A DNA stretch of 8,548 bases from the IMG/VR virus record IMGVR_UViG_3300029518_000108, one strand, 5' to 3'. A model generated the notes under the pieces. The model did not search any database. It had not been told where the DNA came from and saw nothing but the letters and a program-made list of their open reading frames with translations. Origin of the DNA: a virus. Lineage: Duplodnaviria > Heunggongvirae > Uroviricota > Caudoviricetes. Shown one piece after another: positions 2,434 through 4,852 of the stretch. Every line of letters begins with the position of its first letter. Within the stretch, counting starts at the first letter, position 1. Both the position numbers and the translations under genes were made by a program.

Positions 2434-3117
2434 ATGGTTACAAAAACAGTAATTCCGGGAGACATCACCACGCTAAAGGGAGATATTTCCTCAATTAACG
2501 GAAAAGTATCAACGCTTCAGACTGAGATGACCAGTGCAAAGCAGGATATCAGCACCAGATACACAAAAACTGAAGTTGATAATAAGCTGAAAAACAAAGT
2601 GGAAGCGAACGATCTGGAAAGCGGTCGTTATGGCGGTGATTTTTACCCGCTGACTGGCCGCGAAGCGTTTTATTTATGGGGGTTGGGCACGACTACTGCG
2701 GCGGCAAACCTTTATCTTAATCCTGACCCTGCAATTTCGTCTGTACTGCGGTCCACATCGTCTATCCGCTATAAACATTCAGTAGAGACGATAGATTCAG
2801 AGCACGCCGATCTCATTTTCAGGATGCGCCCTGTGTGGTACAGGTCGCAATGCGAAAATGACAGGCGTGACTGGGGGTTCTACGGATTGATTGCCGAGGA
2901 AGTAGGAGAAATTGCCCCTCAGTTTGTACACTGGCGACCAGCTAACGAAGATGATGCTCCTGAAGCTATTTCCAGCAATGGCCTTGTTGCCGAAGGTGTA
3001 ATGTACGAACGTCTGGTTGTTCCACTGATTCACCATATCCAGAAGCTGACTGAAAGAGTTGATGAACTTGAGTCAGAATTAAAGTTGTTATCCGTTTCCC
3101 GAAGCGATATCGGATAA
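2434..3117 (+). CDS. Tail-fibre-like protein, 227 aa: N-terminal coiled-coil-like segment plus a C-terminal intramolecular-chaperone (Peptidase S74-like) domain
   Basis: GGAG 7 nt upstream of the ATG. C-terminal half SSIRYKHSVETIDSEHADLIF...WGFYGLIAEEVGEIAPQFV...GVMYERLVVPLIHHIQKLTERVDELESELKLL fits the S74 chaperone pattern as I recall it (S-x-R-x-K, GLIAQEV-like core, terminal helix). Confidence 0.7.
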   Translation: MVTKTVIPGDITTLKGDISSINGKVSTLQTEMTSAKQDISTRYTKTEVDNKLKNKVEANDLESGRYGGDFYPLTGREAFYLWGLGTTTAAANLYLNPDPAISSVLRSTSSIRYKHSVETIDSEHADLIFRMRPVWYRSQCENDRRDWGFYGLIAEEVGEIAPQFVHWRPANEDDAPEAISSNGLVAEGVMYERLVVPLIHHIQKLTERVDELESELKLLSVSRSDIG

Positions 3118-3127
3118 AGGAGGCGTA

Positions 3128-3417
3128 ATGGATATAACACCTTTCCTTCATGCACTTTGTGCTGTGGCTGCGCAGGTACTGGTTGGTCTTTTTACCGGAA
3201 ACTGGGCTTACGGGGCGATAGCTGGTTGTACGTTCTTCATTGCGCGTGAACATACCCAGGCAGAATATCGCTGGATTGAAATGTTCGGGCATGGCAAGCG
3301 TATGAATATGCCGTGGTGGGGCGGTTTTGATCCGCGCGCGTGGGATGTGGCAAGCCTGATGGATTTTGCTGTGCCGGTGGTGGCGTGTCTGCTGGTCTGG
3401 CTGTTGGTTAATCGTGG
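3128..3417 (+). CDS. Small predicted inner-membrane protein (about 3 hydrophobic helices); 3' end undetermined because the ORF runs into the assembly gap
   Basis: Strong Shine-Dalgarno AAGGAGG at 3117-3123, ATG at 3128. Hydrophobic stretches FLHALCAVAAQVLVGLF, YGAIAGCTFFIA, VASLMDFAVPVVACLLVWLLV. The listed ORF end at 3505 crosses the N-run and is not trustworthy. Confidence 0.5.
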
Positions 3418-3427
3418 NNNNNNNNNN
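3418..3427. other. Assembly gap (run of 10 N); true length and content unknown
   Basis: Ten consecutive n characters; flanking genes are incomplete on both sides. Confidence 0.99.
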
Positions 3428-3438
3428 AAAAAAGGTGA

Positions 3439-3567
3439 GCTGTATATGCAACGGAGGAAGAAAACTCGTTGCTGGAAGCCTGGAAAAAGTATCGGGTATT
3501 GCTGAACCGTGTTGATACGTCAACTGCACCTGATATTGAGTGGCCTACGAACCCTGTCAGGGAGTAA
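3439..3567 (+). CDS. tfa: 3'-terminal fragment of a tail fibre assembly (Tfa) gene; N-terminal part missing in or before the gap
   Basis: Frame ending at TAA 3565-3567 translates to ...[38 protein letters not shown], matching the conserved lambda Tfa C-terminus as I recall it ([26 protein letters not shown]). An in-frame TGA at 3436-3438 sits just after the gap. Confidence 0.7.
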
Positions 3568-3581
3568 TCATTGGGATTATG

Positions 3582-3614
3582 CCGCAGCACGTCTTAAGCA
3601 AGAACGTGCTGCGG
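3582..3614. terminator. Perfect 11-bp inverted repeat (CCGCAGCACGT, 11-nt loop, ACGTGCTGCGG) between convergent tfa and dinI-like genes; candidate bidirectional terminator
   Basis: Stem read directly from the sequence; only weak T-richness follows on either strand, so intrinsic-terminator function is uncertain. Confidence 0.4.
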
Positions 3615-3682
3615 TTGGATGGTGAACTTTCGATAGTGCGAGTATTGAATGATTTCCAGCCGTTACCGATTTTACGTGTTAA

Positions 3683-3931
3683 TTAGTGAACAAACCACTC
3701 GTCAGCAGACTCCCAGGTATCTTTCAGAGTTTCCTGAACAAAAGTTTTAGCTGAATCTTTATCGGCGGTGCGCGTAACAGAAAGGCCATCGTTGCTGGTA
3801 GCTTTTACGATCACCTCTACATCGTCATAACGTTTACTGATGCGTCGGGTTAATTCTTCCTTTAACGCATCCACAGCACCGGTTGGCATTTTAGTCATTT
3901 TTTCTTTGGCTATGCAGATTTCAATACGCAT
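3683..3931 (-). CDS. DinI-like protein (prophage-encoded DinI family, 82 aa)
   Basis: MRIEICIAK...[11 protein letters not shown] resembles E. coli DinI as I recall it (MRIEVTIAK...TWESADDWFV). GAGGG Shine-Dalgarno upstream on the minus strand; SOS promoter directly upstream. Confidence 0.85.
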
Positions 3932-3946
3932 AAAAGTCCCTCTACA

Positions 3947-3962
3947 CTGTGTTTGTATACAG
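3947..3962. promoter_or_regulatory. LexA box 1 (CTGT-N8-ACAG: CTGTGTTTGTATACAG) between the -10 and the dinI-like start codon
   Basis: Exact match to the CTGT-N8-ACAG core with an AT-rich centre; extended site is ACTGTGTTTGTATACAGTAT. Confidence 0.8.
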
Positions 3963-3967
3963 TATCA

Positions 3968-3996
3968 TTTTTAACTGTATGGATAAACAGTGTCAA
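3968..3996 (-). promoter_or_regulatory. Sigma70-type promoter of the dinI-like gene: -35 TTGACA (plus-strand coordinates 3991-3996), 17-bp spacer, -10 TAAAAA (3968-3973)
   Basis: Minus-strand read is TTGACA-ctgtttatccatacagt-TAAAAA; perfect -35, 4/6 -10, about 35 nt to the ATG. No transcription start mapped. Confidence 0.6.
3975..3990. promoter_or_regulatory. LexA box 2 (CTGTATGGATAAACAG) filling the -35/-10 spacer
   Basis: Exact CTGT-N8-ACAG core; extended site is AACTGTATGGATAAACAGTG. Confidence 0.8.
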
Positions 3997-4017
3997 GGGT
4001 GAAGGAAAGTGATTTTT

Positions 4018-4076
4018 TGGGGCATGCATGGGGCAAAAATATTTGTTGTGGGGCATTTTGGGGCATGATTGGGACA
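4018..4076. repeat. Five helically phased direct copies of TGGGGCA(T/A) (starts 4018, 4029, 4049, 4059; degenerate TGGGACA at 4070)
   Basis: Read directly; spacings are 11, 20, 10 and 11 bp, i.e. roughly one helical turn. Located between the dinI-like promoter and the prophage/yecE junction. Confidence 0.85.
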
Positions 4077-4178
4077 CTTTGTTACATATGAACTTTGCCG
4101 ATTTTTATATGACATGGAAATACAACGCTTTGATTCTTCTAAATAAAAAACATGCTCTTGGGCGTTCTTTAGTGATTT

Positions 4179-4289
4179 TTAAAAATTCCGTATCACGCAG
4201 TTAAAGTGGCGGGCATACTCTTCAAGGCTGGTGATCCCCAACCGCACCCATTTAGGATGCGACCATTGCGGCAGACCGATGTAAATCAT
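4179..4289 (-). pseudogene. yecE: yecE 5' stub (about 32 native codons) fused to 4 phage-derived codons and a stop; gene disrupted by prophage insertion
   Basis: ATG at 4287-4289 overlaps the yecD stop (ATGA). Translation [36 protein letters not shown]-stop. The N-terminus fits the YecE/DUF72 pattern as I recall it; the ORF ends prematurely in AT-rich DNA. Confidence 0.6.
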
Positions 4290-4852
4290 AATGCGTTGAG
4301 GATCTCTTCCACACTGCGCACACGGGCGATGCGTGGGTAGATATGGTTGATGCTGTTATTGTGCTGCTCGGCGCTGGCGGCGCTGCAGGCGTCTTCGGCA
4401 ATCACCAGATTAAAACCGAGTTCCCAGGCATTGCGGGCGGTGGATTCAACACCGATATTGGTCGAGATCCCACATAAAACAATGGTATCGATATCCCGGC
4501 GGCGTAATTGCAACTCCAGATCCGTACCGTAAAACGCACCCCATTGACGTTTGATGATTTCGATATCGCTGTCGGTTGCACCTAATGCAGCAGGATGTTG
4601 CCACCAGTTTTCGGGTAACACTTTAGCGGGGGAAGGGGCATCAACCGGCTGTTTTAATGCTTCGGCGTAATCGGCAGACCAGCCAACGCGCACCAGAAAC
4701 ACGGGCTGACCGCTGGCGCGAAATTTTGCCGCCAGCTTCCCGGCGCGATTAACCACCTCATCGGCAGTATGTGGACCACCGGCAAAAGGTAAGATGCCTT
4801 CTTGTAAATCGATCACCACCAGCGCAGTGGTTTTAGCATTAAGTTCAAGCAT
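4286..4852 (-). CDS. yecD: Isochorismatase-family hydrolase YecD (188 aa)
   Basis: Protein [19 protein letters not shown]...[16 protein letters not shown]... has isochorismatase-like motifs. AGGAG sits 6 nt upstream of the ATG at 4852; the listed ORF start at 4885 is an upstream GTG without a Shine-Dalgarno. Confidence 0.9.

Follow-up and report, generated by a model that had tools for sequence, protein, structure and literature searches.

[quoted passage not shown] 2011, PMC3121763; PMC8072944). In these phages dinI heads an operon repressed by LexA, and the antirepressor on which induction depends is encoded in the same operon (PMC3121763; PMC8072944); the operon (dinI, the antirepressor gene gfoA or gftA, and irsA) lies inside the prophage and has one LexA box approximately 19 bp from the ATG. 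The locus described here resembles the Gifsy loci in that a LexA box overlaps a sigma-70 promoter and a prophage DinI paralogue directly follows this promoter, and the Salmonella homologues are 74–76% identical to its protein. It differs from them in being monocistronic, in its position at the attR end of the prophage, in the presence of two boxes and in the hairpin and convergent tail-fibre-assembly remnant that follow the gene. The Gifsy-type layout, with one box (heterology index, 3.9), is also that of phage mEp237, in which the dinI-like gene is followed by a co-directional 82-aa ORF and by a STM1020-like gene (L138, 601–1428); mEp237, a coliphage, is likely to carry a LexA-controlled antirepressor operon.

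Other described systems share single aspects of the locus. The chromosomal dinI gene of E. coli encodes a protein of the same fold family and the same length, and is itself LexA-regulated, but in K-12 only one box (ACCTGTATAAATAACCAGTA) precedes it, which has an index of 6.24 and lies 39 nt from the ATG, whereas two are present here. Several LexA operators overlapping the core promoter are found in lexA (two boxes) and recN (three boxes), as listed in a Salmonella gene table in which the lexA boxes are 21 bp apart, as opposed to 28 bp in the present locus and 26–29 bp among its relatives. Control by LexA and a DinI-like domain are also found together in the phage gene tum of coliphage 186 and in the split tum genes of PSP3 and Fels-2; Tum has an antirepressor domain N-terminal to its DinI-like part, whereas the protein considered here corresponds to the DinI part alone. 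With regard to the transcript, a similar arrangement is that of dinI-DinR of Klebsiella pneumoniae, with a box over the dinI transcription start and a conserved 3′UTR closed by a terminator hairpin (PMC10907235). The ftsZ ribosome-binding site is the target of DinR, which base-pairs with it by means of a stretch specific to Klebsiella (PMC10907235); the 3′UTR of the present gene is unrelated to DinR in sequence and has no such complementarity to ftsZ.

The DNA analysed (8548 bases in all, hereafter the window) is a piece of E. coli chromosome in which, reading from the right, yebC, nudB, aspS, yecD and the first approximately 100 bp of yecE are found in this order, before, at approximately 4190–4212, host sequence gives way to a lambdoid prophage, represented by its right end. 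The attR core is placed at this junction with the truncated yecE (4190–4212, plus strand; the 5′ end of yecE and then yecD are next to it), which can be aligned with a 21-bp feature that the annotation of phage PPyecE_EH1910, another yecE integrator, labels ‘duplication due to insertion’. [quoted passage not shown] That the gene is prophage-borne, as the initial annotation had it, is thereby substantiated, with tail-fibre genes on one side and the yecE attR on the other. Between the gene and attR, three direct copies of TTTTGGGGCAT were detected by a repeat search (4015–4066, plus strand), with an inverted copy at 4027–4039. These repeats (region 4008–4076) start 19 bp upstream of the −35 element and belong to the flanking context, outside the cassette defined below; they are likely to be integrase arm-type sites of attR, and GGGGCAT repeats are present too in another yecE-integrating phage. 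The closest complete match, in strain MINF_1A (99.2% identity over 3100–4300), is a prophage of approximately 50 kb with int and xis at its far end that encodes a ‘LexA family protein’ repressor. The immunity region of the window's own prophage lies beyond the window.

The gene (3683–3931, minus strand, stop codon included) encodes a protein of 82 residues, and its assignment to the DinI family in the initial annotation was upheld by profile and structure-based searches. The Pfam DinI profile (PF06183) is matched with 70.9 bits, compared with a cut-off of 24.2 (E = 1.1e-19), residues 16–80 covering positions 1–63 of the 63 of the profile; PHROG 189 (‘RecA filament binding protein DinI’, a profile of 151 positions) is matched over its positions 71–149 with E = 5.7e-31; and the E. 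coli DinI structures 1GHH and 7YWA are matched end to end (query 1–81 versus chain 1–79, E = 3.7e-13). The NCBIfam equivalog of chromosomal DinI, NF007893, was not reached (73 bits versus a cut-off of 111). From its sequence the protein is, thus, a DinI-like paralogue and not the host DinI, to which it is approximately 49% identical, and, the equivalog threshold having been missed, it may differ from chromosomal DinI in activity. In the cryo-EM structure of the RecA–DinI complex (7YWA) the contacts are made by a hydrophobic pocket formed by L13, L21, W71, W77 and F78, and by the acidic residues E24, E69 and D76. The 1GHH/7YWA alignment places M15, L23, W73, W79, F80, E26, D71 and E78 of the window protein at the equivalent positions, five of the eight being identical and three conservatively replaced. 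Since all eight contact residues are either identical or conservative, it is a well-founded prediction that the protein binds the RecA filament. No variation is seen at W73, E74, A76, D77, W79 and F80 among 16 homologues. Some E. coli DinI-like proteins (P0001–P0003) reach 108–112 residues as a result of an internal 30-residue tandem duplication.

Upstream of the gene, on the minus strand, a perfect −35 element (TTGACA, 3996–3991), two LexA boxes and a Shine–Dalgarno sequence (GAGGGA, 3942–3937, 5 nt ahead of the ATG at 3931–3929, which opens the ORF ending at 3683) are read directly, and all these elements were found where the initial annotation had placed them. The core of LexA box 1, CTGTTTATCCATACAG, spans 3990–3975 (20-mer CACTGTTTATCCATACAGTT, 3992–3973) and fills the spacer between the −35 and −10 elements. 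Box 2, with core CTGTATACAAACACAG at 3962–3947 (20-mer TACTGTATACAAACACAGTG, 3964–3945), starts 2 nt past the −10 element and spans the transcription start, predicted from the position of the latter at approximately 3963–3958. The promoter that had been proposed was correct in its −35 hexamer; its −10 hexamer, given as TAAAAA with a 17-nt spacer, was one base out of register. The promoter scan selects the same TTGACA followed, after 18 nt, by AAAAAT (3972–3967), with 10 of the 12 positions of the two hexamers (3996..3967) matched and four of six in the −10 element. In an alignment of 41 distinct promoters 99.6% of the cells in the AAAAAT hexamer show the majority base, and five of the six columns are invariant. 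The register is settled by a diverged lineage that reads TTGACA, 18 nt and AATAAT, that is, with a −10 element in the 18-nt register.

The proposal that both palindromes are LexA boxes could be evaluated on the scale of the heterology index, for which values are available in a published supplement covering 368 candidate SOS boxes of K-12. An additive scoring matrix was solved from 140 of the published rows with a maximum residual of 5e-5 (9e-5 on held-out rows), and it reproduces the published values for recA, sulA, umuDC, uvrB and others. The indices obtained in this way are 7.20 for box 1 and 7.54 for box 2, well within the range of genuine operators, as had been anticipated: their neighbours in the published table are uvrA (6.98), yebG (7.04) and lexA box 2 (8.32), the proven LexA sites in the table extend from 2.8 to approximately 12.8, and the boundary of the low-index cluster is at approximately 13.6–13.9. 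The window contains nine further CTG-N10-CAG strings, all with an index of at least 15.4. The stricter CTGT-N8-ACAG pattern occurs only twice in the window, both times at the dinI-like promoter, and two or more such sites were found in none of 200 shuffles. By score, therefore, both boxes are predicted to be genuine LexA operators.

Related promoters were collected with two protein queries, that of the window and a homologue 68% identical to it, scanned against viral contigs and genomes. The scans yielded 134 gene copies, 89 of them with at least 100 nt of upstream sequence, corresponding to the 41 distinct upstream sequences mentioned above. A single-protein scan of a species-representative genome collection returned four close loci only, so that the phylogenetic breadth of the comparison comes from viral contigs and GenBank phages. 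Both boxes, each with an index below 13, are found at the same positions in 38 of the 41 distinct promoters. In the alignment conservation is highest in the −10 element (0.996) and in the arms of box 2 (0.997), followed by the −35 element (0.96) and the arms of box 1 (0.957), while lower values were obtained for the interior of box 2 (0.857), for the remaining positions (0.79) and for the bases preceding the −35 element (0.64). The order −35, box, −10, box is kept in homologues with 60–71% protein identity, in which the third codon positions are only approximately 50% identical, and one lineage, the one with the AATAAT −10 element, retains the layout despite quite different box interiors. Conservation of both boxes, thus, persists where the synonymous sites of the gene are saturated. 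Among relatives the boxes are 26 to 29 bp apart, centre to centre, with no fixed helical phasing, and cooperative binding of LexA to phased sites, which was also considered, is not supported. More distant phage dinI genes have a single strong box (index 3.9–5.4) placed over the −10 element and the start site, as in Klebsiella phages (51–68% identity) and in mEp237 (42% identity, with its Gifsy-type operon), and therefore the two-box layout is specific to this clade.

The comparison of genomic contexts also defines the limits of the unit. Homology to other phage contexts breaks approximately 4 nt upstream of the −35 element and, at the other end, at a stem-loop (3582–3614, minus strand; 11-bp stem, centroid structure at −23 kcal/mol) in which compensatory changes are seen at seven pairs when 13 sequences are compared. 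Copies of the cassette lie directly after the integrase stop codon in mEp460-like phages, beside the yecE attR, and elsewhere; in the mEp460-like GenBank record the promoter is annotated and the LexA boxes are not. The lambdoid morons described by Juhala and Hendrix are inserted between modules with their own promoter and terminator. Like these, the present unit has its own promoter, one gene, a terminal hairpin, an orientation opposite to that of the late operon and matching homology breakpoints at both ends, besides varied genomic contexts. As judged from these features it is a self-contained accessory cassette, or ‘moron’, made of promoter, gene, conserved 3′UTR and covarying hairpin. Whereas expression from the repressed prophage is typical of classical morons, the prediction for this cassette is that it stays silent until the SOS response sets in.

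The stem-loop is the probable terminator of both the cassette and the tail-fibre operon, which would share it back-to-back. A U-rich tail is found 3′ of the stem-loop in several other contexts, whereas the window reads CAUAAUCCC instead, because the junction with the tail-fibre-assembly remnant falls at the foot of the stem. A terminator scan of the window did not call the stem-loop, and, with no U-tail in this copy, its termination efficiency is uncertain. Neither an antirepressor gene nor irsA is found co-directionally downstream of the dinI-like gene, where the 3′UTR, the hairpin and the tail-fibre-assembly remnant on the opposite strand are present instead. The only ORF found there on the minus strand (3408–3590, GTG start) was considered as an antirepressor candidate and rejected, being antisense to the remnant, spanning a run of N and matching no family. 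The remnant itself (3441–3567, plus strand) is the C-terminal part of a tail-fibre-assembly gene, is annotated as a pseudogene by RefSeq in the nearest genome and ends 14 nt short of the hairpin that also closes the cassette. The run of ten N (masked bases, 3418–3427) falls inside ORF 3128–3505, a phage membrane protein of PHROG 1443 whose function is not known.

Of 5426 complete E. coli genomes, at least 1409 contain the full cassette, and a single genome can have as many as nine matching places. Among GenBank phages, 133 records include the protein, and many of these are of Stx1- or Stx2-converting phages. The literature was searched for this promoter, for the regulation of E. coli prophage dinI and for the 3′UTR sequence, and nothing specific was found, nor any experiment on this promoter or its protein. 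For dinI of E. coli lambdoid phages the papers consist of annotation and of one remark, made without a test, that phage DinI might limit the induction of Stx2a phages. A two-box dinI promoter was not found described in this literature, a conclusion limited to the papers that could be searched. SOS control of a prophage dinI being already known, it is only the two-site layout of the promoter that appears to be undescribed.

Taken together, the data are best described by a cassette that LexA represses and DNA damage induces, and whose product is a DinI paralogue able to bind the RecA filament, a reading to which we assign a probability of about 0.8, and in which LexA occupancy, induction by damage, RecA binding and the downstream consequences are what we infer. 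In an undamaged lysogen LexA dimers would sit on both operators, in the spacer and at the transcription start, and exclude RNA polymerase. On DNA damage the formation of RecA filaments would lead to LexA self-cleavage and to clearance of both operators, with production of a short monocistronic mRNA that ends at the conserved hairpin and encodes the 82-aa paralogue. By analogy with the Gifsy dinI promoters it is reasonable to expect that this one would be ‘tightly repressed and sharply induced’, as initially proposed. The host yecD and yecE stub are transcribed toward the cassette with no predicted terminator between, and some LexA-independent expression is therefore possible. It could be argued that the boxes are chance or relic palindromes next to a dead or constitutive promoter, and that the gene has no SOS regulation. 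In line with this, promoter-like matches in the region are not above chance (three versus 1.8 expected), so that the promoter call rests on conservation and not on the scan, and one or both boxes are lost in three of the 41 relatives. However, two perfect CTGT-N8-ACAG sites are set 28 bp apart where 0.10 are expected by chance per window, their indices fall in the range of proven operators, and their arms are conserved while the interiors vary, also in lineages with saturated synonymous sites, which makes inert boxes highly improbable. A separate question is what the induced protein would do to the prophage. It has been considered that the DinI paralogue, possibly summed over the prophage copies of a cell, rivals a CI-type repressor for the RecA groove and, thus, raises the threshold of induction or delays it. 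Structurally this is plausible, as DinI and lambda CI occupy the same groove of the RecA filament; the nearest complete prophage copy encodes a repressor of the LexA family, the cassette is as widespread and as repeated within genomes as stated above, and the idea has already been voiced, in the remark on Stx2a phages. On the other hand, when dinI was removed from Gifsy-1 and Gifsy-3 by non-polar deletion, neither the level nor the rate of induction was significantly altered (PMC3121763; PMC8072944). The latter result is not decisive, because Gifsy phages use antirepressors and their repressors are not cleaved. Host DinI at near-stoichiometric levels is also reported by Lusetti et al. 2004 to stabilise the filaments and to block UmuD cleavage much more than LexA cleavage, which speaks against the idea. 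A brake on induction is on balance a tentative and rather doubtful addition to the LexA-controlled cassette.

The transcript of the cassette might, in addition, have a second function, with the near-invariant 3′UTR and the hairpin being freed as an SOS-induced regulatory RNA besides the message for the DinI-like protein, in many E. coli prophages. The 3′UTR (68 nt, 3615–3682, minus strand) was compared in 43 distinct variants, across which a 39-nt block (3665–3627, minus strand) is essentially invariant; the block is 87–95% identical where the third codon positions are 53–77% identical. This comparison is based on three informative lineages only, and mosaic recombination could give the same pattern. 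In K-12 and most E. coli genomes a promoter-less, decayed dinI-like relic is found between ecpE and ykgJ, and 55 of 57 positions are identical between it and the cassette 3′UTR although its coding part has decayed (L143, 2184–2495; L140, 2440–2700); this copy is fixed in the core genome, and the ecp fimbrial operon transcript would there have it as its tail. The succession of a first stem, the covarying terminal hairpin and, in several contexts, a U-tail resembles that of Hfq-type sRNAs, and the DinR sRNA, produced from the dinI 3′UTR of Klebsiella, provides a precedent (PMC10907235). However, the window copy has no U-tail, an Rfam search of the 3′UTR found no family on the dinI strand, and the 3′UTR sequence was not met in the literature searched. 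Targeting of ftsZ in the manner of DinR is unsupported, the ftsZ translation start ranking 34th of 41 genes in duplex energy, as obtained with a crude method that ignores accessibility and is to be used for ranking only. A regulatory RNA is, overall, unlikely, and more so than an effect on induction. Conservation of the 3′UTR due to an overlapping plus-strand ORF (3540–3686, 48 aa, hypothetical in RefSeq) was also considered and discarded, as this ORF has no PHROG match and is not conserved across contexts because its start lies beyond the cassette breakpoint.

Returning to the LexA-controlled cassette, if its promoter acts as predicted many E. coli lysogens add at least one LexA-controlled DinI copy to their SOS regulon, the full cassette being present in at least a quarter of the complete genomes, with Stx1 and Stx2 phages included. 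The amount of RecA-filament modulator available after damage would then be altered, which could affect SOS mutagenesis and might shift the threshold at which antibiotics induce Shiga-toxin phages. With two operators, one gene and one hairpin, the small and clean cassette would be a convenient system to address the role of phage-borne DinI paralogues, a question left by the work on Gifsy phages.

A few additional features of the region are worth recording. Rfam matches below threshold are found on the plus strand for IS009 (3357–3524, 62 bits versus a gathering score of 117) and for the Shigella sRNA CssrB (3551–3613, 33 bits versus 76), the latter overlapping the shared hairpin. In some phage contigs (L081, L079) a ykgJ-like gene directly follows the cassette, so that the ecpE–ykgJ locus of K-12 may be an old prophage end. 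Finally, the tail-fibre gene at 74–2152 contains tandem repeats (314–767; approximately two copies of a 189-nt unit, with nested 42- and 21-nt units), which encode a repetitive N-terminal region of the tail fibre rich in Ala, Lys, Ser and Thr.
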